Shown: one piece after another, positions 1,363-52,400 of the stretch | Numbering within the stretch: position 1 is the stretch's first letter | Layout of the letters: each line of letters starts with the position of its first letter | Origin: a virus | Taxonomy: Duplodnaviria > Caudoviricetes | IMG/VR virus record: IMGVR_UViG_3300020352_000627 | Coordinates: 1-59,854 of that record | Strand: one strand, 5' to 3' | Length of the DNA stretch: 59,854 bases | Position numbers and translations under genes: made by a program | The notes under the pieces: generated by a model | Databases searched by the model: none | Seen by the model: the letters and a program-made list of their open reading frames with translations, nothing else | What the model was told of the DNA's origin: nothing

Positions 1363-1926
1363 TTATTTGAGTGATAGTCTAACATTTTTCTTGTTTATGT
1401 CAAGCATAATTTCCCGACCAAATTCTTTACAGTGTCGATAGTTTTCAGGGAAAACAATAATTTTTCCGTTGATGGCATTTGATCCCCATAAGTCTACAAA
1501 CTTTTTAGCCTCTGCACCTCCTACCTTAATAACTGTTTTATCATAATCTACGAACACAAAAACAATCATATCAAATAATTCGGTTTTTATTGCATTGAAA
1601 GCATACTTCTTGCTTCTAGTTCCGTCTGCTCTTGCTGTTGTGTTGAGTCCAACCGTTGATGTTTTTACTTCTACACGTTTCCAGCTTTGCCCTATTTTTA
1701 CCTTTAGGTCACAAGAATCAACGCCGCTTAGTAATTTTACCTTGAATCCTAAATCCTCTAATTGTTCCATCACAACGTATTCGCCCATACGTCCAATAGC
1801 TTTAGAATCTCCGGCTTCAACAATTTGCCTTGATGCCTCGTCTGTGTATGCTTGTGTTTTGATCTTGTCATTTTTGTATCGTGCTACTGCTCGGTTACAA
1901 ACTTCTGCTTTTACTTTAGTCGCCAT
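1363..1926 (-). CDS. PD-(D/E)XK endonuclease
   Basis: GxxGE helix, then CDL and VEVKTS catalytic motif. Confidence 0.75.
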   Translation of the reverse strand: MATKVKAEVCNRAVARYKNDKIKTQAYTDEASRQIVEAGDSKAIGRMGEYVVMEQLEDLGFKVKLLSGVDSCDLKVKIGQSWKRVEVKTSTVGLNTTARADGTRSKKYAFNAIKTELFDMIVFVFVDYDKTVIKVGGAEAKKFVDLWGSNAINGKIIVFPENYRHCKEFGREIMLDINKKNVRLSLK

Positions 1927-1968
1927 TGTTTTATTCCTGTTTAGTGTGTGTGAAATCGTCTGGTAATT

Positions 1969-2006
1969 ATATCGGTAATTTTATACTGTGAACTTTAGCT
2001 TGTCAA
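1969..2006 (-). promoter_or_regulatory. Nested sigma70 + sigma28-like promoter
   Basis: TTGACA-N17-TAAAAT (2006-1978) overlapping TAAA-N17-ACCGATAT (1997-1969). Confidence 0.7.
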
Positions 2007-2013
2007 GAGTTAT

Positions 2014-2127
2014 TTATTCTGAAACCTCCTCTTTGATAACTTCGCAATGCTCACCGCAAGCAGTGCAAATATCTTCAAGAACAACATCGGAACCACAGCA
2101 ATCTGAAGTGATAATTAAGTTTAACAT
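2014..2127 (-). CDS. 37-aa Cys-rich putative Zn-binding miniprotein (not in ORF track)
   Basis: MLNLIITSDCCGSDVVLEDICTACGEHCEVIKEEVSE; paralog of 2894-3079 with a similar leader. Confidence 0.75.
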   Translation of the reverse strand: MLNLIITSDCCGSDVVLEDICTACGEHCEVIKEEVSE

Positions 2128-2166
2128 TTTCTTTTCTTTCTATTATTGTTTACTTGTTATATCCTA

Positions 2167-2207
2167 AGTATATATATAGTATCGGAATTTGTCAAGCACT
2201 AATTTAG
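2167..2207 (-). promoter_or_regulatory. Nested sigma70 + sigma28-like promoter with upstream A-tracts
   Basis: TTGACA-N17-TATACT (2195-2167) interleaved with CTAAA-N16-TCCGATAC (2207-2179). Confidence 0.8.
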
Positions 2208-2231
2208 AAATATTTTTATTTTTTTTCTGTG

Positions 2232-2247
2232 TGCAAATATCATGCCA
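2232..2247 (-). promoter_or_regulatory. sigma54-type -24/-12 site
   Basis: TGGCATGATATTTGCA, GG-N10-GC spacing. Confidence 0.65.
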
Positions 2248-2263
2248 TAAATTTTTTTTCTTT

Positions 2264-2279
2264 TGGCACAGCATTTGCT
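2264..2279 (+). promoter_or_regulatory. sigma54-type -24/-12 site
   Basis: TGGCACAGCATTTGCT, GG-N10-GC spacing. Confidence 0.65.
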
Positions 2280-2324
2280 ACTGTTAAGATAGGTAACATA
2301 GGTAACCCGGCCCGGCGGATTGCT

Positions 2325-2353
2325 CCTAAGTCCTTTACTGGTAAGGGTTTACG
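2325..2353. repeat. 11-7-11 quasi-palindrome, copy 2
   Basis: CCTAAGTCCTT-TACTGGT-AAGGGTTTACG, preceded by GC patch CCGGCCCGGCGG. Confidence 0.7.
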
Positions 2354-2601
2354 CTTACTTTATTGCCCCATCGTTTCATCGCATCTACTGTACATGCGTG
2401 AAGGTTATTGTCAAATTTAAATATACCTCCTACCGTTTCAATACTCTCTGTTGCCCAACCCTTACCATCATTCATGTCTTCTCTGTAATAACACATCTCC
2501 TTTCCTTTATAAGTATACATATCTACAACTTTCCTACGCCATCCATGCCCCTTCTTTCTTTCCCATACACTTCCGGTTTCTACTGTAATTATTTTTCTCA
2601 T
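2335..2601 (-). CDS. Hypothetical protein
   Basis: 88-aa ORF with ATGA coupling to the upstream peptide gene. Confidence 0.7.
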   Translation of the reverse strand: MRKIITVETGSVWERKKGHGWRRKVVDMYTYKGKEMCYYREDMNDGKGWATESIETVGGIFKFDNNLHACTVDAMKRWGNKVSVNPYQ

Positions 2602-2681
2602 TTGTATTCCCTAAAAACAAAATTACCAAATAGACAAGCAAACATTATTACGTACATCATACCCAATAACCATTCCGGCAT
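2598..2681 (-). CDS. 27-aa single-TM peptide (not in ORF track)
   Basis: MPEWLLGMMYVIMFACLFGNFVFREYK; GAGGAGG SD, TGATG overlap upstream, ATGA overlap downstream. Confidence 0.65.
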   Translation of the reverse strand: MPEWLLGMMYVIMFACLFGNFVFREYK

Positions 2682-2839
2682 CAGCATACCTCCTCAACAT
2701 CTGAATAAATTTCATCAAACAAATCTACTCCGGTTACTTCGCACCAATCAAGCGGATGGGCGTTGATATCGTCGCAAGGTTCTACCACACCTTCATTTTC
2801 TAGGGCGGCAATTAACAGCTGAGTATTTATATCTAGCAT
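2681..2839 (-). CDS. 52-aa acidic hypothetical protein (not in ORF track)
   Basis: MLDINTQLLIAALENEGVVEPCDDINAHPLDWCEVTGVDLFDEIYSDVEEVC; GGAG SD. Confidence 0.65.
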   Translation of the reverse strand: MLDINTQLLIAALENEGVVEPCDDINAHPLDWCEVTGVDLFDEIYSDVEEVC

Positions 2840-2893
2840 CTCAATTTCTCCGTGGTAAGTGTATCAAAAGTGTACCAAATTTTATTATCCACA

Positions 2894-3079
2894 TCAACTG
2901 CAAAAATAATCTAATCCCTGAGCAGCGTGAACAGCTTCGGAACAATCGTAGTCGATACGATCTTCGATTACTTCACAATGTTCTAAACATTCTGGGCAGA
3001 TGTCCTGATCTGAATGGCAAGGGTATCCGCAGCAATCGGTGGAATAAGTTATTTCGAAATTTTTTGAAGTGTTTAACAT
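2894..3079 (-). CDS. Cys-rich putative Zn-binding miniprotein
   Basis: DCCG...DICPECLEHCEVI; paralog of 2014-2127. Confidence 0.75.
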   Translation of the reverse strand: MLNTSKNFEITYSTDCCGYPCHSDQDICPECLEHCEVIEDRIDYDCSEAVHAAQGLDYFCS

Positions 3080-3117
3080 TTTTAATTCTTTCTAATTTGT
3101 TTACTTGTTATATTTCA

Positions 3118-3157
3118 AGTATATATACTTATTCGGAAAAGTCAAGGGGTAATCTTA
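3118..3157 (-). promoter_or_regulatory. Nested sigma70 + degenerate sigma28-like promoter
   Basis: TTGACT-N16-TATACT (3145-3118) with TAAG-N16-TCCGAATA; leader ATATAACAAGTAAACAA shared with the 2167 promoter. Confidence 0.7.
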
Positions 3158-3165
3158 AAAAATTT

Positions 3166-3321
3166 TTATTTTTTTTCGTAGATTGTATCGAGATAAATTT
3201 CGCTATCTGTTACAACCCACCCATATTCACACGTGCTAGTATATGTACCTATGTACAGTTTACCATTGTCGTATCCTTCGTATCCTACAAACATACTTAA
3301 TAGTGTGGCGATTGTCAACAT
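3166..3321 (-). CDS. 51-aa hypothetical protein (not in ORF track)
   Basis: MLTIATLLSMFVGYEGYDNGKLYIGTYTSTCEYGWVVTDSEIYLDTIYEKK; GGAG SD. Confidence 0.65.
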   Translation of the reverse strand: MLTIATLLSMFVGYEGYDNGKLYIGTYTSTCEYGWVVTDSEIYLDTIYEKK

Positions 3322-3356
3322 TGTATTTCTCCGTGTGTTATTGTTACCTATATATA

Positions 3357-3384
3357 ATATCGGCTTGTCCAGGCGGAAACTTTA
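3357..3384 (-). promoter_or_regulatory. sigma28 (FliA/SigD)-like promoter
   Basis: TAAAGTTT-N12-GCCGATAT, near consensus. Confidence 0.75.
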
Positions 3385-3445
3385 CAACAAAATAGATTTT
3401 TTCTCGTATACCCCTCAAAAGAACTAGCCGGGGGGTTGGAAAACA

Positions 3446-4563: not shown

Positions 4564-5865
4564 ATGCCCCAACAACCACCATCAGTAAAAGGCCCATTTT
4601 TTCCCACATTCCCTCCTCCCGACACAACCAATACTGGCAATCCTTCTTCAGGAGGTCTTGCCCATCTTTTTTGTTCTTGGACTGAAGAAGTCGAAGTCTG
4701 CGAAACAGGAGTAGCCCAATGTGCTGGAACTTGGTCAGCTGCTAGTAGCGCCGGAGGATCAAGCGGCGGCTCACTAAGTAATGGTTCTTGTGACATTAAT
4801 GTATCTTTTGATTTAGCTTGTGATACTCCTCAAGCTATTAATGTAACAGCTAATTGTTCAGATGGCACAACCGTTGTATTAGATGAATACTATTGGCCAG
4901 GAAAACCAACTAATAGTAGTGAAGGCCAATATTATGTAGTTTGTCAATGTGACACCTCCGAATGCTCGGAAGAAGGAGGACTAGGATCAGATTACTGTGA
5001 TCAATTTGAGAGTGGTCCTTATGCTACTGAGGCTGAAGCCATCGCAGCTGTGCCATCCTATGATGGAACGTGCAGTTGTACAGCCACAACAACACCATGT
5101 AGTGACACAGCATATAACAAGACGTTCACAAATGTATGTGAAACAGCTCCTCCTGTAAATTGCAGAATGGTAGAGATACCAGGTAGTTGGTCAGACATGA
5201 TACCTCTGACTGCTTCATGTGGGTGGACTGTTCTTGCTGGAGCATCTGAGGTAGACAAAAATATATTTTTTGCGAAAGTAGCACAACACCTCATAAACAA
5301 TAACCCAGGTTTAGTGCAAATTATACGAATACACTTGAAGGTAGGCTTATCTGCGAGTGACACTAGTGCTGTCATGCAATTCTTAAAGTTGATGAAAACA
5401 ACAAGTGGATCGAAGTGTCTTTTGCAACCACCACCAAATTTCTCCGATAGTTCTGTTCTTAGAGCCATATCAGATGCTGTTGCTAAACATCTAAATCAAA
5501 TGGGAAAAGGAGCCCCAAAACCACCAACTGGAGGCGGCATAAATTTTGGTCTTCCTGTGATGATCATCATGCCAACACTAGATATGTTACACGAAAAACT
5601 TAACGAACAAATGAATCAATTTAATAGTTTCGACGACGTTAAGTGCGCTATGAATGTAAATCCTGGAGGAGGCGGTATAGGAACAACTGTCGGACCAGGT
5701 AATCCAGGTTTATCTTTACCTTTAAATAGTGTTGTTAAATCTTCATCTTCTGGATCAAGTTTAAATCAATCAACAAAAAACAACATTTTACTACATATAA
5801 ATAACGGATTCCCAGCACTAAATGGAAGACTATCACTCAAGACACCCAAAGCAGAATATCTATGA
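4564..5865 (+). CDS. Cys/Ser/Gly-rich hypothetical protein
   Basis: 433-aa ORF with many Cys in the N-terminal half. Confidence 0.7.
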   Translation: MPQQPPSVKGPFFPTFPPPDTTNTGNPSSGGLAHLFCSWTEEVEVCETGVAQCAGTWSAASSAGGSSGGSLSNGSCDINVSFDLACDTPQAINVTANCSDGTTVVLDEYYWPGKPTNSSEGQYYVVCQCDTSECSEEGGLGSDYCDQFESGPYATEAEAIAAVPSYDGTCSCTATTTPCSDTAYNKTFTNVCETAPPVNCRMVEIPGSWSDMIPLTASCGWTVLAGASEVDKNIFFAKVAQHLINNNPGLVQIIRIHLKVGLSASDTSAVMQFLKLMKTTSGSKCLLQPPPNFSDSSVLRAISDAVAKHLNQMGKGAPKPPTGGGINFGLPVMIIMPTLDMLHEKLNEQMNQFNSFDDVKCAMNVNPGGGGIGTTVGPGNPGLSLPLNSVVKSSSSGSSLNQSTKNNILLHINNGFPALNGRLSLKTPKAEYL

Positions 5866-6242: not shown

Positions 6243-6668
6243 CTATGATTGATACATATGCGCCCCATGATGCTCGAACCCTAAGGAGCTATAAAAAGGA
6301 ATCAAGTATTCTTCGCAGTTAAGCTTTACCTTGTAGCAGTTATTATCTTTCGCGCCCTTAATACAATGTTCTACAATTTGCTTTCCGTAGCCTTTGCCTC
6401 TGTCTTCTAATCTTGTAGCAACATCTTCTATATGACAGCACATCTTATTATATCTTAATTTAACTTCCAATACTATTGTAGCTGTAGCTACTACACGATC
6501 TTCTTCTATTCCTAAATACGTAATTATATTTCTTCTACGCGCTACAGCATCTCTTACAGCTTCAACATTCTGCACAACACAATCTGAATTATTTAAAACG
6601 CTAATACATTCCATGTATCCTTTTATATAATTTTCATCTGTGTCTTTGTTAAGTATAATTATATTCAT
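6243..6668 (-). CDS. Glucosamine-6-phosphate N-acetyltransferase (GNA1-type GNAT)
   Basis: HIEDV, RGKGYG acetyl-CoA loop, CYKxxLxC and FYxxxGF motifs; coupled to glmS. Confidence 0.8.
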   Translation of the reverse strand: MNIIILNKDTDENYIKGYMECISVLNNSDCVVQNVEAVRDAVARRRNIITYLGIEEDRVVATATIVLEVKLRYNKMCCHIEDVATRLEDRGKGYGKQIVEHCIKGAKDNNCYKVKLNCEEYLIPFYSSLGFEHHGAHMYQS

Positions 6669-8482
6669 TCAACAGTAACACTCTTTGCTAAATTTCTTGG
6701 TTTGTCAACATTACATCCTCGACCTTCCGCACAATGCAAAGCGAATAGCTGTAATGGAACTAAAGACATAAATGGAGTAATTATGTCATCGCATGACGGA
6801 ACCTTTATATTATACTTTCCTATATTATCATCATTGTCGTGATTCAATATAGCTATAATCTGACCGCCCCTAGATTCTATCTCCATCTTATTATTTAAAA
6901 TCTTATTATATTCTTTACTATGGTTCGCTATTACTACTACAGGCATCTTATTATCAACTAAAGCTATAGGCCCATGTTTCATTTCTGCTGCCGGATATCC
7001 TTCAGCGTGTATATAAGATATCTCTTTTAACTTTAAAGCGCCCTCTAGAGCTATTGGAAAGTTATAACCCCTACCTAAAAACAAACAATTCTTTTTATTA
7101 TAAAACCTTTCAGCCAACCCTCTTAATTCTGCACAATCTTTAATAGCTTCTGTCATTAGTATGGGTAAATCTTTTATACTATCTATAACCTTTTTTCTTT
7201 TACGTAAATCTGTATGATTCGTAGTTTGATCTATCATTAGAGCTAATAACAATAATGATAAACATTGATTTGTAAAAGCTTTGGTACTAGCAACTCCTAC
7301 TTCTATACCGCATCGTGTATAAATTCCACACTCTGTCATCTTACTTATTTGTGAATTAATAGTATTACAAATTCCTATCGTAATAGCACCTTTTTCTTTT
7401 GCTAATCTCAAAGCAGCAATAGTATCTGCTGTTTCTCCTGACTGAGATATGCCTATTACAATATCTCCGTTTTCAATGACAGGATCTCGATATCTAAACT
7501 CACTTGCATATTCTACATTTATTCCTACTCCTGCTAACTCTTCTATATAATACTTACCCAATAAACCAGCATGCCAACTAGAACCACAACCTAAAAGTGT
7601 AATCCTTCTAGCTCTAATAAACATTTTCTTATTATCAAAACCGCCCAGTTTAATCTTATAGCCATCTATTCTGCCTAACAAACATTCACTAATAGCCTTT
7701 GGCTGCTCATGTACTTCTTTTAACATAAAACTAGAATAATTTTCTTTAGTAATTTCATATGCGTGATTATATACTTTTTCTAGATTGCATTGTGTAACAT
7801 CCTTAACATTACTATCATAGTGTTCTATCTTGTCTTTTTGTATCTTGGTTATATAACCATCCTCTAGAGAGATAATATTATGAGTATCTTTATTAAATGC
7901 ACTTACATCGCTGGCTATATAATAGTTATTGTCTTGTACCCCTATACACAAGCTACTTCCTTTCTTGGCACATACTAATGTATCAGGGTTTTGTTGATCT
8001 AATAGGATAAAAGCATATGCCCCTACTACTTTTTCTGTAGCTATCTTTACAGTATTAAATAAGTCCCCCACACCTTGAAGCACATCATATATTAGATATA
8101 GCAATATTTCAGAATCCGTATCTGAATTAATTGTATATTTGTCTCCCAAACTATCCTTTATTTCTTTATAGTTTTCTATGATTCCATTATGAACCAAAGC
8201 TAGGGAGTTATTATATGTTACATGAGGATGAGCATTTCTTTTACAGGCTTTACCATGCGTAGCCCACCTAGTATGACCTATTCCTATATTTCCGGTATAT
8301 TTCTTAGAAACATCCAAATCTTCTATACTACCACTTTGTTTGAATGTTTTTATCTGACCGTCTTTTTTATTTATAAAGGATATACCTGCGCTATCATACC
8401 CTCTATATTCTAATCTTTTTAAACCTTCTATTAAAAAAGGTACAGCGTTGTCTTTTCCTAAATAACCTACTATTCCACACAT
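6665..8482 (-). CDS. glmS: Glutamine--fructose-6-phosphate aminotransferase
   Basis: MCGIVG, LEYRGYDSAG, GHTRWATHG, SQSGETADT, C-terminal PRNLAKSVTVE. Confidence 0.98.
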   Translation of the reverse strand: MCGIVGYLGKDNAVPFLIEGLKRLEYRGYDSAGISFINKKDGQIKTFKQSGSIEDLDVSKKYTGNIGIGHTRWATHGKACKRNAHPHVTYNNSLALVHNGIIENYKEIKDSLGDKYTINSDTDSEILLYLIYDVLQGVGDLFNTVKIATEKVVGAYAFILLDQQNPDTLVCAKKGSSLCIGVQDNNYYIASDVSAFNKDTHNIISLEDGYITKIQKDKIEHYDSNVKDVTQCNLEKVYNHAYEITKENYSSFMLKEVHEQPKAISECLLGRIDGYKIKLGGFDNKKMFIRARRITLLGCGSSWHAGLLGKYYIEELAGVGINVEYASEFRYRDPVIENGDIVIGISQSGETADTIAALRLAKEKGAITIGICNTINSQISKMTECGIYTRCGIEVGVASTKAFTNQCLSLLLLALMIDQTTNHTDLRKRKKVIDSIKDLPILMTEAIKDCAELRGLAERFYNKKNCLFLGRGYNFPIALEGALKLKEISYIHAEGYPAAEMKHGPIALVDNKMPVVVIANHSKEYNKILNNKMEIESRGGQIIAILNHDNDDNIGKYNIKVPSCDDIITPFMSLVPLQLFALHCAEGRGCNVDKPRNLAKSVTVE

Positions 8483-21174: not shown

Positions 21175-24100
21175 ATGCCGGTTAATACAAGACTTCAAAT
21201 CAGAAGAGGCACTCACTCCGAATGGGTAGTTGCCAACCCTGTTTTGCATTATGGTGAGATGGCTTGGGAAAGTGATACTGGTAGGATTAAGATAGGTCTT
21301 ACGGGAGATCTAAATTGGCAGGCTATACCTTATTCTTTTGCAACTCTACAAGATCCTTCTAATGCAGGTTCTTTAAATAGTTTTTTAAGTGAATCTGGAA
21401 TTTCGCTTACTGGAGTTACGGGTGTCTATGGGCATGTTACAGGGATACAGATAGATAGTAAATTATCTCCAGGTACAGATATAGGCTTATCTACTGACGG
21501 AAACGGCTCTATAGTTATTAGTTATACGGGGGATGCCAGCTTAAATTTCCAAGATAGAGAACAAGTAGAAACTATCCAAGATATTGTAGGTAGTGGAAAT
21601 CATACTTCTACAGGATTTATTCGACAGGTTTCTGGTATAAATATAGTTTATGACGATAATGGCTCTAATGGAAGTGGTACTCTTACTTTCGCTTTAAATG
21701 AATTAGTTGGTGAGAGTGGTGTTGTTACTAGCTACAATAATGATTCTTGGAAAATAGCTACTAATTTAACATCTGGTAGTGGTATTGAAATAACAGATGT
21801 TGCAGGATCCAAGAGAATTACTGCTACAGGTCTTGCTCTTGAAAGTCATAATCATGATATTAACGATATAAATGGATTTAGTTCTGTAGATGTAACACAC
21901 AATAGTGTTAGTGGTATTAATAATTTAATCGCTAGTGGAACTGGTATTTTTGATGTATTAGAAATTAATGGCTCAAACGGGTTTGTTTTTCCTAATACGG
22001 ATGGAAATGATGATCAGATATTGGTTACAGACGGCAGCGGCGTTGTGTCTTGGCAAGACCAGCCATTAAATCATCCTGTTATAGATAACGCTCTTGGGAA
22101 TACAAGTAATAGTGGCAGAGATTATGTTCAGAATATATCTTTTGACCAATATGGTCATGTTACAGGAATTTCTCTTGGTACAGAGACTGTTGTAGACCAT
22201 TCTGTTACTGGTGTTGTTTTTAATAGTGGTAATAATGATCTGGTTTTACATAAGAGTGACGGGGTTAGCATAACAGGTAATTTATCAGGAGTTTTAGTTT
22301 CTGGTACTTCCTATCATTCAAATATATCTAATGCAGCAAATGATTCAATTAATAATAACAGAAATTATGTACAGAGTATATTACTAGATGAATATGGGCA
22401 CATAACGGGAATTATAGAGACAGCGCAAGAAACTGGGGTTGAAAGATATTATCCTGGTACAGGACTTAGTGTAAACACTACAACACAAACTTTTCATATT
22501 ACAGGAGTAGCTACAGATTTATTACAAGGAAGTATACAAAATAGCCAATTAGCTAATTCTGGTATTACTGTTAGTGGAGGTATAGGTTTACAAAATGGTG
22601 GATTTGCAGCTCTGGGAGAGACTGTTACCTTAGACGTAGATAATTCTGTGGTAGTTACAGGCAATACTTATCAATATCCTCCTTGGTTAACAGGTATAAA
22701 TGCTGATATTATCACTGCTGGCATTATTGCTGCTGATAGACTTCCTTCTTATGTTGATGATGTCATAGAAACAGGAACATTCAGCCAGCTACCTGTTGCT
22801 GGTACTGGAGGCAAGATATATGTAACTCTAGATACTAATTTTATATATAGGTGGGGAGGATCTTCATATGTACAGATTAAAGATGGAGATAATAATTATG
22901 CAACAGGATTGATATGGGATTCTGGTGCTGGTAATTTATCCATACAAATGTTTGGAAAACCTGATATAACAGAAAATTTAGACGGAAGATATTTACAATC
23001 TTTTACAGAAACTGATCCTACAGTTAGTGGATATATTAAAGCAATAACAACACAACAAATAGATAACTGGGATTTATCTTATTCTACATTAGAATCAGCT
23101 TCTGGAAACTGGAATATATCATACTCTTGGGTTACTGGGAATAGTGGATTAGTTGTATCTAGTGGAGATAATATTAGTCTCCTGATGAATGATTCAGGAT
23201 ATGCTACCACAGGAGAGCTAGTTTCTACTTCTGGCCACTTACAGACTCAGATCGATAGTTTGCCTGATGATAATACTTTTATTAGTAGTATTAATTATAG
23301 CACTACAGAAAGAAATTTGGTAGTTACAAGAAATGATGGAGTTCTCTTTACCGGCAATCTTAATATTGTAATGCATAGTGGAGATAATGTAAGTTTTCTG
23401 GTGAATGATTCAGGATATGCTACCACAGGAGAATTGATTTCTACTTCTGGGCATTTACAGACTCAAATAGATACCCTGCCTGATAGCGATACTTTTGTCA
23501 CAGGCATAGTTTATAATTCAGCTACTCATCAATTAGTATTAGATAGGAATATTGGGTCTGTTACAGGTATTTTAGACAATATTATTCATAGTGGTGATAA
23601 TGTAAGTCTTTTGACTAACGACGCAAACTATATAGATGGTTCTGGCATAAATAACTTTATCCCTGTATTTAGCGGTATTGATACTATTACGAATAGCATT
23701 ATACATCAAAGTGGAGATCGCATTGGTATCGGCACAAGTTCTCCAACAGAAAAACTAGATATTAGAGATGGAGATATTTTAGTAGGGACTAAATTACTCA
23801 TTGGTAGTGGAATATATAGTCAAACTTCACCTGGAGCTTATTTCGGATTAAAACATACAGAGCTCACAGACCCATCCGAATATATGATCATGAGCGATGG
23901 CACTCACACTTATCTTAGCGCTAAAGAAGATAGTGATGTTATTATTAGAGGCGGTGGGAATAAAGTTGATCATCAAATTGTTGTTACTGAAAGTGGTATC
24001 ACTCTTGGTAAATACAGACCTGCAGCTAGTAGTGTAGATGCAGAACATGATGTTGAGCTTGTGTATGATGATGGTGGTTGTGTCAGAATTGCTGATCGTG

Positions 24101-27100
24101 GTGGTAGTGGAATTATGTTGGGTGATTGTGCATTAAATGCTAATAATACATATGCAGGTATCAAGCATACTGACATGATGGGCGATGATGATTATATGAT
24201 AGTCAGCGATGGTACAGATACCTATATTAGTGCTAAAGATACTGGTTCTGTTTATTTACGTCCCGGTGGTAATGCCGGAGAAGGTGGAATAAAAATATCA
24301 GACGTTGGTGCTGGAGGTGTTTCAACTGTATTTAATGATGCTGGTGCTAATAGAGATATTAGAATGGCAGGCACTGGTGACCTTAATCTCTTTAGGCTTG
24401 ATGCTGATGAGGATAGAATTGGTATAGGAACACATGCACCAGCTTATAAGTTAGATGTATCTGGTACTTTTAGTGCAGATAGTATAAATGTTAATAATCA
24501 GTATACATTACCTACTGGAGATGGACTTACTGGTCACAGTTTAGTTACAGACGGTGCAGGAAATATTATATTCAGTGGAGTTTCTGCTGCTGGTGGAGAC
24601 GGTAGTGTTAATACTATTTATAGTAATGGTGTTCAGGTTGGTGATGATGATATTGAAATATTAGATTTCTCTAGTAATTTTTCTGTAAGTGAAAATCCAA
24701 ATGCCAAGATGAATATTGGTCTGTCCGATATGATTACTGTTAGTGGTCTTACTATCAGTGGACTAGATCCTACAGGTTATACTTTCCCTGCCTCTGATGG
24801 TTTTAATCGTCAAGTATTAGCTACAGACGGTAGTGGAATTGTTTATTGGAGTGGCATTAGTGATATAATGTCTGGTTTTAGTGACTATGAAATAGTGTCA
24901 TCAGCAAAAAGTAGTTTTATCGTTAATGGTGGTTTTACTGTTGGTAGTTTAGATGTGTATTATAATGGTCTAAAATTACTCAATGGTGATGATTATGTAG
25001 AGGTTGATGGAACTGGATTTACACTATCCTCTGCTGCTACTTTTAATGATGTTATAGAATGGGAAGGCCATAGAACAGCTCCTGAATATGTTACATTGGG
25101 CAATCCTGGAAATAATAGATTAGTTACTTCTGACGGATCTTCTACCACAATTAATGGTCAATCTGATTTAATTTTTGATGGTACTGGTTTAGGTCTAGGT
25201 ACTACTTCTCCATCTCCTTCTGGTGGCGAAAATTCTCTACATATACACTCTAACATATATCCAGAAATTAAACTTACTAATAATGCTACAAACAGTACTT
25301 CTTCTGATGGCGTGTCAATACTAATAGAGAATAACAAAAATTTCAGAATAATTAATTCAGAAGAAAGTTTAACAGAATTTTATAACGCTAAAGCAAATGG
25401 CTCGCTTGTAGAAACCTTAAGACTTGGAGCTACTCAATCAATATTTAACTCTGCTGGTGATGAGAATCTAGACTTTTTAGTAAGTGGTAGTGGTTCATCT
25501 AATTTAATCTTTGCAGATTCTTCTACTAATAGAGTAGGCATAGGAAATAATAGTCCTACTACTAAGCTTGATGTTTCTGGCGTTATTACTGCTAGTGGTG
25601 GAGATTCTACAGAATGGAATACTTCTTATAGTACCCTTGTTGCTAGATCCGGCTTTTGGAATCTGGCATATGATACCGTTCAAAATAAGTCTGCTAGTTG
25701 GGATAGTTCTTATGTGTGGATAACTGGAAATAGTGGTAATCTTGTATATACCAATCAAACATACGAAAATCCTTCTTGGTTGACTTCAATTAATCCAAAT
25801 ATTATAAGTGGAGAAATTCCTGAAAACAAGATTCCTGCTTCGTTCAATGATGTTCTTGAATATGCTAGCACAGGTAATTTCCCTGGCTCTGCTGCAAGCG
25901 GTATCGTTTATATTGCTCAAGATACAAATAAAATATATAGAGGGAGTGGCAGTGCATATATAGAGATTAGTAGCGATACTAATGATTTTGTGAATGCAGC
26001 TACTTTTAATACTACTGACGGAACTCTTCTTTTAACCAGGATTTCTTCAACTGCTGTAACAACTAATTTAGATGGCAGATATACAACAGGATCTGGTACG
26101 GCCAATTATCTTGCTAAATGGACTTCAAGTAAAAACATATCAAGTGGAATTATTTATGATGATGGGACTAATATTGGTATAGGAACGGCTTCTCCTAATT
26201 ATAAATTAGATGTTGCGGGTAGTGGTAGTTTTAATAGTTTAAATATCAATGACGCATTTACTTTTCCAACTAGTGACGGTACGGAAGGTCAATCTCTTGT
26301 TAGTGATGGTGCTGGTACTGTGGTCTGGTCAGGCATAGACACAGATACTAATAACTATGTGACCGGTGTGGCTTTTGATACTGCCACAGAAGTTTTAACT
26401 CTTAATAGATTAGATTTGTCTGATCTTACAACCTCTTCATTTAGTGGAGTATACCTTAAAGAACTTTCACAAGATCCTTCTCCTCAGCTAGGAGGTGATT
26501 TAGATCTTAGTGGTAACGATATAACTGGAAATGGCAGTATTAATATTGGTGGAGATTTGACTACAAATGGAAATAATGTAGATATTGGTAGTACAGCATA
26601 TGGTTTACAGGTATCAAGTTCTGCTGCAACTTTAGCTTCTAATAGACTTCAGATTCTGGGTAGTGAAACTGTATTTAATCAAGCAGGATCAACTGCTGAT
26701 TTTAGGGTAGAGGGAACAGGTCAGAGTCATCTACTATTTATAGATTCTTCTAAAGACAGTGTTGGTATAGCTACTGAATATCCTACATCTAAACTTACTA
26801 TTGGTAGTGGTTATCTCGATGGTGGTGGAATATGTGTAGATATGGAAGGTGTTAATCAGCCATCATTTACAGCTAGAAGAGAAAATGGAGATCCTGTATT
26901 TTCAATTTTATCATATACTAGTCAAGTCTATATGTCTGTTGGAGTTTACTACAATGGAAGTCAATGGGTTCATTCTAGTGACAATTCTAATAGCTCAATA
27001 TTTACAATAGATCCTCCTAATGGAGTATTATGGTATTCTAGTAATAGCGCTTCTAGTATTAGTAACGTAGCTAACGCAGTAAACTTATGGGACGCTCAAG

Positions 27101-28113
27101 GAAGATGGAATGCAGATGTTATAGGTTCTGTTACTGGTCCTGTTAGTGGTATAGTTGCTCCTGGTGGTGCTTATACTTTACCTAGTGTTGATGGAGCATA
27201 CAAACAGGTTATGGTAGCATCTGGTGATGGTACAGTTCATTGGGAGGATCAAACAGGTACTGGTGGAGGAGGAACAAGTAATTTAATTAGACAATCTTAT
27301 ACTCCTACTATAAGTACTAGTTCATTTACTGTAACTAATGGATATACAGTAGGTAGTGTAAATGTTTATAAAAATGGAGTTAAGCTTTTTGAAGGATCAA
27401 CTTATGACTATACTGCTACTAACGGAAGCGTATTTAATCTAACTCCTGCTGCTGCTAGTGGAGATCTTATAGAGGTTGTAGCTTTAAATGCTAATGCTGC
27501 TCCTACAGCAAATACAGCTTTAGCTAGTGTGGGCGTAACAAGTACTCAAACACAATTTAATACAACAGAAACCATTACTAGTTCAAATTTGGTTGTGTTC
27601 TTGAATGGTGTTAAACTAGTAGATTCAATTGACTATAGTGTTGCTAATACCTCACGATTTGATTTGCTCTCTCCTGCTACTTCGGGAGATACAGTAGACT
27701 ATATAGTTTATGGAGCAACGGTCGCAAGCTCTAATCTGCAAAAAACTGGTGATACCATGACAGGTAATCTAACGGTGGGTGCAGATTTGATAGTTACAGG
27801 ATATAAAGAAACTCATACAGACAATGGGAATACTGGTACTGTACGAACTATAGATATCACAGATAGTACAATACAAACATATACTCTTAATGGCAATTGC
27901 GTATTCACCATGCCTACCCCTGACGCTGGTAGAAGTTTTACTGTTTTACTAAAAACTGGGGCTGGTAGCTTTACTGGAACATTTACGGGAGTTAAATTTC
28001 CTGGTAATGTAGCTCCAACTATTACTGCTTCTGGAAATAGACTAGATACTTTAACCTTTATATCTGATGGCACTAATTGGTACGGTAACGCCGTACAGGA
28101 TTATCACCTATGA
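21175..28113 (+). CDS. Long tail fibre/adhesin with Mtd_N-like N-terminus
   Basis: LQIRRGT..EW...NPVL..GE...E.DTG..KIG; repeated IGIGT, FPxxDG..QxLxTDG and VYxNGxKL modules; 2312 aa. Confidence 0.85.
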   Translation: MPVNTRLQIRRGTHSEWVVANPVLHYGEMAWESDTGRIKIGLTGDLNWQAIPYSFATLQDPSNAGSLNSFLSESGISLTGVTGVYGHVTGIQIDSKLSPGTDIGLSTDGNGSIVISYTGDASLNFQDREQVETIQDIVGSGNHTSTGFIRQVSGINIVYDDNGSNGSGTLTFALNELVGESGVVTSYNNDSWKIATNLTSGSGIEITDVAGSKRITATGLALESHNHDINDINGFSSVDVTHNSVSGINNLIASGTGIFDVLEINGSNGFVFPNTDGNDDQILVTDGSGVVSWQDQPLNHPVIDNALGNTSNSGRDYVQNISFDQYGHVTGISLGTETVVDHSVTGVVFNSGNNDLVLHKSDGVSITGNLSGVLVSGTSYHSNISNAANDSINNNRNYVQSILLDEYGHITGIIETAQETGVERYYPGTGLSVNTTTQTFHITGVATDLLQGSIQNSQLANSGITVSGGIGLQNGGFAALGETVTLDVDNSVVVTGNTYQYPPWLTGINADIITAGIIAADRLPSYVDDVIETGTFSQLPVAGTGGKIYVTLDTNFIYRWGGSSYVQIKDGDNNYATGLIWDSGAGNLSIQMFGKPDITENLDGRYLQSFTETDPTVSGYIKAITTQQIDNWDLSYSTLESASGNWNISYSWVTGNSGLVVSSGDNISLLMNDSGYATTGELVSTSGHLQTQIDSLPDDNTFISSINYSTTERNLVVTRNDGVLFTGNLNIVMHSGDNVSFLVNDSGYATTGELISTSGHLQTQIDTLPDSDTFVTGIVYNSATHQLVLDRNIGSVTGILDNIIHSGDNVSLLTNDANYIDGSGINNFIPVFSGIDTITNSIIHQSGDRIGIGTSSPTEKLDIRDGDILVGTKLLIGSGIYSQTSPGAYFGLKHTELTDPSEYMIMSDGTHTYLSAKEDSDVIIRGGGNKVDHQIVVTESGITLGKYRPAASSVDAEHDVELVYDDGGCVRIADRGGSGIMLGDCALNANNTYAGIKHTDMMGDDDYMIVSDGTDTYISAKDTGSVYLRPGGNAGEGGIKISDVGAGGVSTVFNDAGANRDIRMAGTGDLNLFRLDADEDRIGIGTHAPAYKLDVSGTFSADSINVNNQYTLPTGDGLTGHSLVTDGAGNIIFSGVSAAGGDGSVNTIYSNGVQVGDDDIEILDFSSNFSVSENPNAKMNIGLSDMITVSGLTISGLDPTGYTFPASDGFNRQVLATDGSGIVYWSGISDIMSGFSDYEIVSSAKSSFIVNGGFTVGSLDVYYNGLKLLNGDDYVEVDGTGFTLSSAATFNDVIEWEGHRTAPEYVTLGNPGNNRLVTSDGSSTTINGQSDLIFDGTGLGLGTTSPSPSGGENSLHIHSNIYPEIKLTNNATNSTSSDGVSILIENNKNFRIINSEESLTEFYNAKANGSLVETLRLGATQSIFNSAGDENLDFLVSGSGSSNLIFADSSTNRVGIGNNSPTTKLDVSGVITASGGDSTEWNTSYSTLVARSGFWNLAYDTVQNKSASWDSSYVWITGNSGNLVYTNQTYENPSWLTSINPNIISGEIPENKIPASFNDVLEYASTGNFPGSAASGIVYIAQDTNKIYRGSGSAYIEISSDTNDFVNAATFNTTDGTLLLTRISSTAVTTNLDGRYTTGSGTANYLAKWTSSKNISSGIIYDDGTNIGIGTASPNYKLDVAGSGSFNSLNINDAFTFPTSDGTEGQSLVSDGAGTVVWSGIDTDTNNYVTGVAFDTATEVLTLNRLDLSDLTTSSFSGVYLKELSQDPSPQLGGDLDLSGNDITGNGSINIGGDLTTNGNNVDIGSTAYGLQVSSSAATLASNRLQILGSETVFNQAGSTADFRVEGTGQSHLLFIDSSKDSVGIATEYPTSKLTIGSGYLDGGGICVDMEGVNQPSFTARRENGDPVFSILSYTSQVYMSVGVYYNGSQWVHSSDNSNSSIFTIDPPNGVLWYSSNSASSISNVANAVNLWDAQGRWNADVIGSVTGPVSGIVAPGGAYTLPSVDGAYKQVMVASGDGTVHWEDQTGTGGGGTSNLIRQSYTPTISTSSFTVTNGYTVGSVNVYKNGVKLFEGSTYDYTATNGSVFNLTPAAASGDLIEVVALNANAAPTANTALASVGVTSTQTQFNTTETITSSNLVVFLNGVKLVDSIDYSVANTSRFDLLSPATSGDTVDYIVYGATVASSNLQKTGDTMTGNLTVGADLIVTGYKETHTDNGNTGTVRTIDITDSTIQTYTLNGNCVFTMPTPDAGRSFTVLLKTGAGSFTGTFTGVKFPGNVAPTITASGNRLDTLTFISDGTNWYGNAVQDYHL
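23161..23484 (+). repeat. Intragenic direct repeat, 216-bp period
   Basis: SGDN(I/V)SxLxNDSGYATTGELxSTSGHLQTQIDxLPD encoded at 23161 and 23377; partial third copy near 23590. Confidence 0.85.
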
Positions 28114-46483: not shown

Positions 46484-49400
46484 ATGGCCAATGCTTTTAA
46501 CTTGACAGCACAGCTTAATCTTAGAGGTCCCTCTAATCTTAAGCCTGTGATAAAAAACATTAAATCACAATTGGGTAATATTAATGCTAATGTTAATTTA
46601 ACAGTAGCAAAAAATAGTAGTGCTAATATAGCAAAATTAAATGCTGGACTAAAAGCCCTTAATAAAACATTAAATACTACAACTGTTACTAGTAGAAATG
46701 CAGCGAATGCTATTAGCAGTTTAGGCACGGCAATTAAAGGGATTAATGCTAGCCAGGTTAGTGCTTCTATTAATAAAGCTACCCAAGCCTCAAAGCAATT
46801 AGCTGCTCAACAGCAAACTGTAAGCAAATCCCTAGCCTCTTCTAGAACAGAAATGGAAGAGTTTGGTAAACAGTCAGGTTTGGCTATTAGAAGATTTGCT
46901 GCGTTTAGTGCCGTAACTGCTGTTGTTTTTAAATTAAATAATGCTATTAATACTGGCGTTAGCTCTTTTATAGAATTTGAACAACAATTCATTAGATTGC
47001 AACAGGTTACAGGAGATAGTGCTCAGTCTTTAAGTAGACTACAAACCTCTATTACTAAACTTAGTACTGGCTTAGGTGTTACTTCTCAAGAATTAAGCCA
47101 AGTTTCTGTTACGTTAGCTCAGGCTGGTTTAAATGCGAGAGAAACAGAAAAAGCATTAGAGGCATTAGCTCTTAGTGCTTTGGCTCCTTCTTTTGATAAT
47201 CTTAACAATACTGTCGAAGGTAGTATTGCATTGATGCGTCAGTTTGGTATTAGTTCCAATGAGTTAGGAAGCGCTTTAGGTAGTATTAATGCTGTTGCGG
47301 CTAGTTTTGCTGTTGAAGCAGGAGACATTATCAAAGCTATTAGTAGAACTGGTGGTGTGTTTGCTAATGCCAGTAAAGGAGTAAGTGAAGGTACAGACGC
47401 TCTTAACGAATTCATTGCAGTATTTACTAGTGTTAGAGCTACTACTCGTGAAAGTGCAGAAACTATTGCGACAGGTTTAAGAACTATTTTTACAAGAATA
47501 CAAAGAGGCTCTACGATAGAAGCTCTTAAAGAGTTTGGAGTTACTCTTACAGACTTAGAAGGTAAATTTGTTGGACCATTTAAAGCTATTCAATTATTAA
47601 GTGAAGGTCTTGGAAGATTAGATCCTAGAGATATTTCATTCTCAAATATTGTAGAAGAGCTTGGTGGTTTCCGTCAAATTGGTAAAGTTATTCCTCTTAT
47701 TCAACAATTTGCTACCGCACAAAGAGCTTTAGGAGTAGCTAATGCTGGACAAGGGTCTCTTGCAGAAGATGCGGCAATCGCTCAATTAAGTTTAGCCAAT
47801 CAAATAGCCAAAGTTCGAGAAGAATTTTTAGGACTGTTTAGAGAAATAGGAGGAAGTGATAGTTTTCAAACAATTGCTAAAGGAGCTTTAGGTTTAGCTA
47901 GTGCTTTAATTAAAATTGCAGATAGTGTTAAAGGCGTTCTGCCTGTCTTGGCTATTATGGGAGCTGCTAAGGGTCTTTCTGCTGTTACACAATTTACTGC
48001 TGGATTTGCAGGAGGTATAAAAAGCGGTGGTGGGGCTAGAGGTTTTGGCTCAAGGATGTCTGGAGCTCCTAGTGGTTTTGCTACAGGAGGTTTGGTTCCT
48101 GGCCAGGGTAATAGAGATACTGTACCAGCAATGCTAACGCCGGGTGAGTTTGTAATTAGAAAAAAAGCAGTTGAAACTATTGGTGCTTCAAAATTAGGAA
48201 GCATGAATAAATATGCTGGAGGAGGCAAAGTACAAAAATTTGCTAAGGCAGGGCCTGTTAGATATAAGGCCGATAGAGGCAGTAAAATGCAAGAAGTTGA
48301 AAATTTAGGAGCTAGAGATGGAGATTCTTGGAGAGTTAATTATATTCCTTCTCCAGATAAGGTCGGTCCCGTCACTACTAGAGCCGTAGGGTATGACGCT
48401 TATGAAATAGGAAAAGGAAAAGGAAGAAAATGGGAAAGAGCTTTAGGTCAAATAGCTACTGATGTTGCAGATAGCGAATTTAAAAAGGGAAGCAGCCAAG
48501 CTTTTACAAAAGGATTTAATGCTGTTGGAGATAAAAACAGATCCATCGGTTCTCGTCCACTACATAATGTAGGTGACGTTGCTAGGGAACTAATTTCTCA
48601 AGGATTAGCTGTTCCTGCTGGATCGAAGGCTACAGGAAGTTCACCACAGCCGACAGATCAACAAATAGCCACACTTAAAACTTTTTCTTTTGAATACGAC
48701 AAAAAAACAGGTAAGACTAAAGGAGGACCTTTAAGACCAGGATTTAATTTAGGGGGCTCGGTACAAAGATTTGAAAATGGTGGAGGTATTAAAGTTGCAA
48801 AAACCGGCAAGGTTACTAAAGCAGCTATAGCAGGAGCAACAACATCACAAATACAATCTTTGCTGACTAATCCGAACGTGCGTAAAAATCCAGCATCGAT
48901 GGCATCATTAACTAAGGCTTTGAAAGAAAAACAACTTCAAGAAGCAGTATTGCCTAAGTTTGCTGTAATTGGACTGAGAGGAAGAAACTTTAACGAAAAA
49001 GTAAAAGCTCCTTCAAGTAAAAAAGCAGTAAATATTATGGGCTCTGTTTTACCAAAAGGTATTGCAGATGCTTATGAAGGACAAATGGCGGACGGTTTTA
49101 CTAAGACAGTTAAAGGCATATCTGGTCAAATTGCAGGTAAAGTTGGAGCTAATGTAATATCTGACACAGAACTTAAAGCAATTATAACAGAAACAGGTTT
49201 TTACAATGCTGTTGGTGCTTATCTTGAAAGTGCTGTCGCTGGAGTTGGTGCTCCTTTTCTAAAATCTTCAATTAATGAACCTATTGATTTTCCTGCCGGT
49301 GTTGGTAATGTTGGTAGTATGTTTGGTATTCCTGGAAATATTCCTACAGATACCACTCGAACTGTTGCTGAGAAAGGCAAAAGTCCTCAAGCGTTTCTTG

Positions 49401-52400
49401 GTCAAGTAGATAGATATATAGAAAAATATGGAACTACAGGAGCATTAAAACTTGCTGCTGGAGGAAGTGTAGCAGATACCGTTCCTGCATTGTTAACTCC
49501 CGGCGAATTTGTAATTAACAAAAAAGCAGCAAGAAGCATAGGTTCTGCTCAACTCAATAAGATGAATAAAGCAGACAAACTTCAAGGTTTTAATAAAGGT
49601 GGTCCTGTTGGGTTTGCTGATGGAGGAGGAGTGCCTCTTAGACCAGATGTTATTCAACAATCTACTGTTGCCATACCTGATAGCGCTAGACAAGGACTAG
49701 AAGAAATTATAAATGTATTAGAAGAGTTAGGAGTTCAATCTAAAGCAACTTCTAGCGTGGTTGCTAATCAGGGTAGAGTTAGTTATGAAACTGCAATTGA
49801 TGCTTCTAAAGCAGATTTAGCAAAAGCCAAAGCAGCAGGAGCATCATCTGCTCAGATAGGGGTTTTAACTAAAAATTTAATAAATTTACAAAGTGAAGCG
49901 TCAGCAAGTGTTAAAAAAAGACAAGGACTAGAAAGCGCTTTTGGTGCAGGAGGACGGGATAGCGCAACACAACAAGCAAATATTTTAAGTCAAGCAGAGA
50001 CATTAGCTGAAGGACGTATAGCAAAAGCTTCAGCAACCAAAGGTAAGAATTTAACTGCTGAAGACATAGCTAAAATTAGAGACTCCTCTTTTTCTGACGC
50101 AACCAGATCGGTAACGGGGGTTTCTAACGCTGATCTTAAAGCGTCAGGTATTAAGGGTTCGGATATTCAACAATATATATCTGAGACGGAATTAGATTTA
50201 AAGTCTCAGGATAAATTTTTGGAACAATTCCAAACCAGTAGACAAAAGCAGCTTTTATCCCAAAAAACACAGGCCGGTACCGCAAAATACACAGCAGAAG
50301 AAGCTAAAAAATTAGCAGCTAAAGAAGTCAAAGCACGAAGAGATGTTACCAAACAGATACAAAAATCCAGAGGATTGCCAACTGGTGGAGGTTTTGGCTC
50401 CAGACTTAAAGGTATGGGTGGACCTCAAGCTAGTATTGCTGCTAGTTTAGCTCTTCCTATGATAACAGACTTTTTCGCTGGAGGAGAACCTACTAGTGCT
50501 AGCGGAGCATCTAGTCAGGCATTAGTTCAAGGAGGAGCAGGAGCAATTTCTACAGGACTTGCTGTAGGTAGTATTGCTGGTCCTATTGCAGGGCTTGCTG
50601 CTGGGGCAGTAACTTTGGTTAAGTCGTTTGCAGATGCACAAAACGCTGCTGTGGAGTTTGCAGAAAAACTTAGTAGAAGTAAAATTGAAGAATCAGCCGA
50701 AAAACTTAACAAAGCTTTTGAGATACTAGCAAAGAATGCTGAAGATCAACAAACCATCAATCTTGTAGAAGCAGAACTAAGAAATATAAGTGATGAGACT
50801 AGAAAGTTAGTAGACAGTAATAATAATACCACCCAGGTTGGTTTGCTCAATATGTTCGATGTTTTTTCATCTAGTGAAGCATTTAATCAAAGAGGAGAGG
50901 TTTTAAGTAATCAGGGAATAGGTGCTTATCTACAAACTCTGTTTAACTCTTCTGGGCTAGAAGATGCTTTTGATAAAGAGAGACCTAGAATAGCTAGAGA
51001 AAATGCTAAGTTATTTGCAGAAACTACTCAAGCCACTAGAGAATTCATACATTCATTAGTTAATTCAGGAAAAACCTATGAAGAATTAATAAATGATCCT
51101 AATCTTCTTAAATTTTCTGAAAATTTAGTGTTAGCAGACGTTGCTGTACAAAGAGCTATACAAAATATCCAAAAAGCAGGCGGAAGTTCTGCAGACGTAG
51201 CTGACTTTGTGGCACGAGCTGCTGCTGAAAAAGCTAGAGAACAAATTAATATTAGCATTAATACTAAAGCTTTAGACGATCTTAATAAATCAGCTAAAGA
51301 ACTTTCTATAAGTTTTAAAAGACTATTTTCTAGTATGGACCAACAAGTTGCTAGAGCTACTTTTAGTTTAGCTAGATTTGATGAAGGTTTAGAACAAAGC
51401 ATAAATGCTCTTAGTGGTTCAGCAAGAATAGGAGAATCTTCTTCGCGTGATGCAAATATTTTAGAAAACCCTTTGGCGTTTAGTAGTGCGGATTTTAATT
51501 CAGCTACCGCTAGAAGTGCTGGTAGATTTGGTGAAGATTCCACACTTGTTAGAGGTATATTACAACTTGGACCAAGTTTAGAAGACAGCATACTTAAAAC
51601 TATTAATACAGTTCTGGCTAATGACGGGGATAATCCTGAGATAGCAAAAGGAAGAATTAATAGAGCCGTTCAAGAAGAATTAAAGAATCTAGGTCTGCCC
51701 GCTTCCCTAGCAGCTAAATTATCCAGAGAAATTGCAAAAGCTGTAGGAGACATTACCAATGAGACAGACAAAGGATCTGTTTCACTACAAGAACTAACAG
51801 AAAAAATATCAGGTTTAAATGACTTAATAGGAACATCTGCGCAAGCCAGAAAGACTGCGATCAATGCTTTAAATCAATGGCAGTCTTCACTAAATTCGTA
51901 TGCTAGCGCTATCAATAAAATAACAGAGATGCAATTAGAATCTGCAAATCGATTAAGAAGAGCAAGTAGCATATTATTCGATGCTCAGGTTAGTCTAGCC
52001 GGTGCTCTTGGTAAGGATATTAGTTTAGATACTTTAGAAAGAGAAAGAGATAGAGATATTAGATCTCGAACAGGAGGACTTAACGATCCTGTAGATATTG
52101 CGAATTCATTAAGCTCTTTGTTAGACAGAAGGCAGGCTCAAGCGGCTAATAGACAGGCTGCTGGTGCTGATATCAATGCTCCAGATGCTTCTGCTGCTGT
52201 TGTTAAAACCACTCAAGAATTAGCTAAAACAAATTTTCAAATCAATGAAACTAGAGCAGCGCTTGAAAGTTTAGCCAACGACTCGAATCTGGCTTCTGCT
52301 GCACTCAACAAAATACAAAAAGCTCAACAAGATCAAGCTGGTAAAGTTACTTTTATTGAAAAATTAGTAACTAGTACGCCAGCAGAATTAAAAAACTTAA

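Follow-up and report, generated by a model that had tools for sequence, protein, structure and literature searches.

The two back-to-back sigma54-type sites in this phage are most likely candidate docking sites for the host sigma54 holoenzyme in a conserved early-promoter cassette, judging by their sequence and its conservation. In this family of large marine siphoviruses, known from uncultivated members, the cassette would divide one early transcription unit from the next. The observation itself is real and far beyond chance. Binding of sigma54 in some role appears quite probable, and there is about an even chance that both sites are recognition elements for host RNA polymerase-sigma54 (RpoN) that act as conditional divergent promoters. 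The arrangement as a pair is probably functional, given its recurrence in many phages. The DNA analyzed, here called the window, is a viral record of 59,854 bp from IMG/VR with a completeness rating of about 40%, and it is a piece of a large uncultivated marine siphovirus.

Both sites in the window have exactly 10 bases between GG and GC. In the forward site, which has the sense of the early genes, the GG is at 2246-2245 and the GC at 2234-2233, and positions 2232-2247 read TGCAAATATCATGCCA (reverse complement TGGCATGATATTTGCA). In the backward, gene-antisense site the GG is at 2265-2266 and the GC at 2277-2278, and positions 2264-2279 read TGGCACAGCATTTGCT. A preliminary description of this DNA had reported two sigma54-type sites with exact GG-N10-GC spacing, 16 bp of AT-rich DNA between them, and a sigma70/sigma28 promoter just downstream of them. 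The sites at 2233-2247 (-) and 2264-2278 (+) were confirmed, as were the separation at 2248-2263 with 15 of its 16 bases A or T, and a sigma70-type promoter (TTGACA-17-TATACT) 37 nt beyond the minus site (Table 1). The A/T-rich spacer is the upstream region common to both sites, and a second A/T run, 33 bp from the spacer, makes the direct repeat D1.

The pair is exceptional within the window. There are two exact matches to TGGCAY-N5-TTGC against 0.14 expected; the pair supplies both, and they fall within 46 bp of the 59,854 bp. Only one of 100 dinucleotide shuffles of the window acquired two exact matches. When one mismatch is allowed, the count is eight against 5.05 expected and the motif is no longer enriched, so that only the exact pair stands out. 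Two strain variants fall in the sites: 2244 G>A turns the forward site into TGGTAT and keeps the GG and the GC, and 2269 C>T keeps the Y position of the backward site. If the pair is viewed as an inverted repeat, its arms reach only 72% complementarity over 18 nt, and what they have in common is the -24 and -12 blocks rather than the bases between these.

Table 1. Features of the early-promoter cassette and adjoining genes in the window
Feature	Position	Strand	Basis or remark
Forward (gene-sense) sigma54-type site TGGCATGATATTTGC	2233..2247	-	exact motif match
Backward (gene-antisense) sigma54-type site TGGCACAGCATTTGC	2264..2278	+	exact motif match
A/T-rich 16-bp spacer TAAATTTTTTTTCTTT	2248..2263	.	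15/16 A/T, T8 run
A-rich 37-nt stretch, UP-element-like	2196..2232	-	between forward site and -35 hexamer
Sigma70-type early promoter TTGACA-17-TATACT	2167..2195	-	11/12 matches
First leftward gene, 37-aa Cys-rich mini-protein (DCCG...CxxC...EHCEV)	2014..2127	-	ORF list
Imperfect palindromic GC-cored element: GGTAAC repeats, CCCGGCCCGGCGG, CCTAAGTCC...GGGTTTACG	2280..2350	.	
Upstream early ORF, 88 aa	2335..2601	-	ORF list; no Pfam/PHROG match
Alternative sigma70-like promoter TTGGCA-16-TAAGAT, TG before second hexamer	2263..2290	+	9/12 matches

The two sites face different surroundings. The minus site is aimed at the gene at 2014-2127, with the sigma70 promoter in between, whereas the plus site has only antisense sequence ahead of it and is aimed solely into the 3' end of the convergent 88-aa ORF. 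The palindromic element at 2280-2350 lies at the 3' end of that upstream gene, and the backward site points into it. The left 3.7 kb of the window consists of small leftward genes without family matches, which is the expected look of an early region. Searches that included Pfam and PHROG gave no useful protein-family assignment for the early ORFs of the window. The genes at 2014-2127 (-) and 2894-3079 (-) encode paralogous Cys-rich mini-proteins of 37 and 61 aa, both with DCCG...C..C.EHCEVI, and neither the shorter protein nor its paralogue matches a Pfam or PHROG family. A similar ...DCCG motif opens genes after forward sites in relatives, for example in L071 and in L127 near 4154.

Other elements recur around the early genes of the relatives. 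The 3' ends of early genes in L124, L125, L127 and the window (2280-2350) have two palindromes around a short GC core, with words such as GCGGCCGC, CCGCGG and CCCGGCCCGGCGG. The palindrome sequences are lineage-specific and the layout is kept; they are of the GTAAG...CTTAC type, contain CTGCCATTTTGGCAG twice, or form C-run/G-run hairpins. In L123, the closest complete relative, the variant word GGCAC-N5-AGTGC followed by GGCCG is found at 892-906, 2225-2239, 4585-4599 and 6456-6470; these variant words also have the GG-N10-GC spacing and lie inside palindromic GC cores. The word CCGATA(T/A) recurs in early sigma70 promoters (window 2167-2195, L123-L127), either right after the -10 hexamer (TATAAT GTCGATATAAG) or 2-4 nt after the -35 hexamer, and in the window it sits in the spacer of the 2195..2167 promoter, where it is the basis of the sigma28 label in the preliminary description. 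We take this word to resemble a sigma28 -10 element, and its spacing to TAAA words is not an exact fit to the sigma28 consensus. A tRNA-Glu (ttc) borders the early region in two relatives (L125 8727-8799 and L127 26-97); the window itself has no Rfam family and no tRNA.

The distribution of the sites in related phages shows that the cassette is conserved. The records of five relatives were compared (G001-G005), three of which are rated complete. A contig with a 99% identical neighbouring protein has an identical pair. The 15-mer of the forward site is identical at the homologous place in relatives, and this site retains the spacer bases GATAT even across otherwise divergent phages. In the backward site the spacer bases differ among relatives (AGCA, ATGA, ATCG), while the TGGCAY and TTTGC blocks are constant. 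The spacer between the sites is 15-18 bp long in the relatives and A/T-rich throughout. The cassette begins with the palindromes and the backward site; after 15-18 bp of A/T comes the forward site, and some 37 nt further on the sigma70 promoter and a small gene. Consensus sigma70 promoters likewise lie downstream of the forward site in relatives. Nearly every exact site is inside the small-gene early region: 4 of 5 in G001, 6 of 7 in G002, and all of those in G003 (5), G004 (3) and the G005 fragment (12). The reversed pattern has no occurrence in any of the five.

An unbiased count of 5-mer/4-mer dyads also arrives at the sigma54-type motif. The count covered 38.2 kb of early regions, namely the window up to 3700 and parts of L123, L124, L125 and L127. 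TGGCA-N6-TTGC occurs 29 times against 0.55 expected, and it is the top dyad once dyads built from palindromes are set aside. The spacing of TGGCA and TTGC is strongly restricted, with 29 occurrences at N6, two at N7 and single ones at N1 and N12, while ten further spacings had none. In the extended sigma54 consensus, a T precedes the GG, the GG is followed by CA, a pyrimidine and a purine, and TTGC is followed by A or T. The positions that the dyad leaves unfixed agree with it in the 29 family sites: TGGCA is followed by Y and then R in 29 of 29 and preceded by T in 22, TTGC is followed by T or A in 29 of 29, and A and T before TTGC are found in 24 each. The family sites thus have the GG-N10-GC spacing and, compared by eye, agree with the extended consensus. 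The free positions also resemble, by eye, Escherichia coli ChIP-seq sites such as TTGGCATGATTCTTGTA at pspG (PMC4591121). The preliminary description had read the two sequences as -24/-12 elements, and a motif that is conserved, clustered and spacing-specific in related phages argues for this assignment.

The pair is widespread among viral contigs. Conservation in related phages had been proposed earlier as a test; pairs were found at the homologous cassette, and the inverted-pair pattern is present in at least 119 IMG/VR contigs. As spacing controls, the same words were searched in IMG/VR with GG-N9-GC, which gave one contig, and with GG-N11-GC, which gave three; by our own estimate these counts are at about the chance level. 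The back-to-back pair is at least 40 times commoner in viral contigs than the spacing controls, and therefore the enrichment is tied to the sigma54 spacing. A subset of the pair contigs has the full architecture of the window, with flanks that vary by phage. Among the matches listed there are 66 sequence clusters, as defined by common 13-mers around the pair, and 130 distinct pair sequences, and the matches listed include 664 exact sites in 1.075 Mb. For the listed loci that are richest in sites, the GC fraction ranges between 0.35 and 0.63. A motif this constant in phages so unlike one another is better explained by a conserved factor of the hosts than by phage proteins peculiar to each lineage.

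Most of the listed loci have 4-12 sites per few hundred bp, some in tandem and some alternately convergent and divergent. Arrays of 5-12 exact sites are found at L005 3441-3650, L008 8237-8450 and L056 418-600, among others, and further ones are at L096 2057-2461 (tandem), L014 2436-2600 and L050 3562-3790. Many arrays alternate convergent pairs, in which the -12 blocks are 3-7 bp apart, with divergent pairs, and have a period of about 47 bp. A large terminase gene is no more than 3 kb away in at least 27 loci, often together with portal, GP88, Thy1 and Pyr_excise genes.

Sigma54 is unique among bacterial sigma factors in that it sits on DNA and does not transcribe until an ATPase activates it. 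In the proposed mechanism, the holoenzyme would dock at both sites and form a closed complex at each. If the host supplied an enhancer-binding activator, the minus site would start transcription near 2221 and would be a second promoter of the early operon in tandem with the sigma70 promoter. The plus site would start near 2290, and its transcript would be antisense to the last part of the gene for the 88-aa protein. If there were no activator, the holoenzyme would dock next to the sigma70 promoter at both sites and remain silent. Palindromes located -65 to -130 from the minus site are no more than candidate binding sites for an activator.

The orientation and placement of the sites in the family bear on whether they fire. 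Of 29 exact family sites, 10 are sense and 19 antisense to genes. The distance from sense sites to the next -35 hexamer is 36-38 nt in 7 of 10, and the intervening sequence differs between phages. For antisense sites this distance is 32-33 nt in three cases and 64-70 nt in ten. In the family, sites stand alone as often as they form pairs, so the pair is not the functional unit. Several of these points speak against ordinary promoters. The 19 antisense sites have no gene to express, and the strong sigma70 promoter ahead would seem to make the forward sites redundant. The fixed 36-38 nt to the -35 hexamer suits an upstream operator and is unnecessary for tandem promoters. In other phages, some sites face each other across only 3-5 bp and cannot both be productive. 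Finally, no phage-borne activator or sigma54 domain was found in the records of the five relatives, where searches for Sigma54_activat and for Sigma54_DBD and Sigma54_CBD each gave none in five. Sigma54_activat was also absent from all 269 ORFs screened in further viral contigs, a set limited to ORFs of at least 130 aa no more than 3 kb from a cluster of sites, with duplicates that had identical first 60 residues removed.

It is possible, if somewhat unlikely, that the sites bind the sigma54 holoenzyme without ever firing, and that they tune or insulate the sigma70 early promoter or act as a decoy for scarce sigma54. As a decoy, they would take effect after replication, when the many copies of the phage DNA could bind most of the little sigma54 that the host has. 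This possibility is favored by the excess of antisense sites and by distances to the -35 hexamer that are quantised in both orientations. The lack of an activator in the relatives' records and among the 269 ORFs is also in its favor, as are the dense arrays in other phages, where some sites are closely face to face. According to PMC4591121, the sigma54 holoenzyme binds in an inactive state, and work cited there has an overlapping sigma54 site repressing a promoter. The same paper also supplies counter-evidence, namely that bound sigma54 had no effect on overlapping genes and that a roadblock was effectively ruled out in E. coli (PMC4591121). A pure decoy would not need a fixed position relative to the promoter. 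A metatranscriptome contig that crosses the plus site hints weakly that transcription can pass it.

The RNA data come from four runs with marine metagenome labels, which were compared as assembled contigs and hence carry no starts, ends or strand. The contig that crosses the plus site spans 2252-2630 and has nine extra T at its end, a possible result of oligo-dT priming on an A-run of a leftward RNA; this reading speaks neither for nor against either site. A contig from run X19 matches only 2134-2258, that is, the sigma70 promoter, the forward site and part of the spacer. To the left and right of this stretch the similarity ends, which would be expected of a cassette that different phages have in common. 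A structured small RNA starting from the plus site was considered and rejected. The window copy folds no better than shuffles (z = 0.98 and 0.03), and 20 backward sites have no consistent strand preference in folding.

An unlikely alternative to recognition by sigma54 is that the sites are operators for another phage or host protein, which would act on the sigma70 promoter from about -80, the likeness to -24/-12 elements being a convergence. An operator would suit three observations: the sites keep their distance to the -35 hexamer although the bases in between differ, their orientation varies, and no sigma54 machinery was found in the phages (five relatives' records). The forward site also keeps its GATAT spacer across divergent phages, and this is not a requirement of sigma54. 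On the other hand, the match to sigma54 sites extends to every informative position, including those left free in the search. The same motif is found in 66 clusters among the matches listed, over a wide GC range and tied to the sigma54 spacing, and the site is not two-fold symmetric. An inverted-repeat operator for a dimeric repressor was rejected. Its arms would be the 72% complementary sequences, and it is a misfit because single sites are common and the spacing of the pair varies over 15-18 bp.

It is very unlikely that the plus site is a sigma70 promoter for an antisense transcript (TTGGCA-16-TAAGAT, with an extended -10 TG) and that only the minus site is sigma54-like. The sequence has 9 of 12 matches with TG before the -10 hexamer, and TAAGATAGG follows the backward site in the window, in G001 and in one G002 cassette. 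However, the backward sites of G003 and G005 and three further ones of G002 have no -10 hexamer at this place and keep TGGCAY-N5-TTGC, and a sigma70 promoter would have no use for the TTTGC block. A chance inverted repeat, hairpin or terminator without sigma54 meaning is scarcely credible: the arms pair partly (72% over 18 nt) and the site comes after a gene end, but a terminator scan found none at 2230-2280, there is no U-run after either arm, the non-pairing spacer bases change between relatives without compensation, and chance is excluded by the enrichment and the spacing controls.

The other genes of the window give few indications of its host. They include a terminase, a tape-measure ORF and a GlmS-like gene. 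The tape-measure ORF (46484-59854, +) is open-ended, has more than 4,457 aa and a minor-tail (tape-measure) domain, and would imply a very long tail. A 2,312-aa ORF at 21175-28113 (+) has an Mtd_N domain, and the GlmS-like amidotransferase is encoded at full length at 6665-8482 (-). Compared with isolates by tblastn, the terminase has only about 24% identity, to phages of Bacillus, Clostridium and Microcystis. GlmS has about 40% identity alike to homologues from archaea, CPR bacteria, Lachnospiraceae and Campylobacterota (genome contigs). With such low and scattered similarities, the presence of rpoN in the host is not indicated. The psbA gene was absent from all five records searched, those of the window and of four relatives, so there is no pointer to a cyanophage. 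When isolate phages were compared by blastn with positions 1400-3400 and with the cassette, there was nothing, or only A/T-rich chance matches.

Some features of the cassette have counterparts in known systems. In the glnAp1/glnAp2 arrangement of enteric bacteria, sigma70 and sigma54 promoters stand in tandem on one gene; the activator sites are upstream, and the sigma54 promoter lies closer to the gene than the sigma70 promoter. In contrast, the sigma54 site of the window is upstream, no activator site was identified, and the second site is reversed. The PeSL cassettes of T4-type phages consist of repeated early-promoter modules and palindromes between small early genes, and they are not known to contain a sigma54-like element. 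The X19 contig, which matches only 2134-2258, resembles them in behaving as a shuffled cassette would, whereas the palindromes here vary by lineage and the one in the window has no better fold than its shuffled versions.

Use of sigma54 by a phage has a precedent in the lytic phage YuA of Pseudomonas. Ceyssens et al. in 2008 are reportedly the source for the dependence of YuA on sigma70 and sigma54. Putzeys et al. (2024) describe this dependence and one mapped sigma54-like promoter (PMC10914365). The GenBank record of YuA (NC_010116) has three active '-24/-12 consensus' promoters annotated in the structural region. In the first 50 kb of YuA, no plus-strand site is within one mismatch of TGGCAY-N5-TTGC; since its promoters are outside one mismatch of the pattern, YuA is a precedent only by annotation. 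No activator is annotated in the 50 kb of the record. YuA is like this phage in being tailed, in having -24/-12 promoters besides sigma70 ones, and in the use of host sigma54 on phage DNA. The sites of YuA are single, sense, located in the late structural region and weaker matches, whereas those of the window and its family are consensus-grade, in the early region and often antisense, and the window pair is upstream of a sigma70 promoter. The chromosome of E. coli offers a second comparison. Bonocora et al. (2015) describe inactive sigma54 holoenzyme at many positions within genes or antisense to them, and they saw no roadblock effect (PMC4591121). Those sites are likewise consensus-like and conserved, and many are far from gene starts (PMC4591121). 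They are scattered on the chromosome, in contrast to the phage sites, which are clustered, have fixed distances to sigma70 promoters, and form arrays in other phages.

The finding concerns a part of phage biology that has received little attention. To our knowledge, the role of sigma54 in phage infection is almost unstudied. One documented case of sigma54 promoters in a phage, YuA, was found in the literature, and the full-text literature searched, whose coverage leaves out most subscription journals, contains no paper that describes sigma54 sites in pairs or arrays in a phage. Here, a family of large marine phages has sites of consensus grade that are conserved, occur in clusters and keep to the sigma54 spacing. 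This raises the question whether the host sigma54 holoenzyme is a conditional promoter system, a cis-acting regulator of early promoters, or a trapped target. A broader and rather doubtful idea is that non-firing docking sites occur in many lineages of tailed phages, where they would titrate scarce sigma54, blunt host responses and insulate phage transcription units. The pairs in the early cassettes here and the arrays of 5-12 sites beside terminase genes elsewhere would then, equally tentatively, be forms of the same thing. If true, capture of sigma54 by docking sites would be a general and so far undescribed way in which phages manipulate host transcription.
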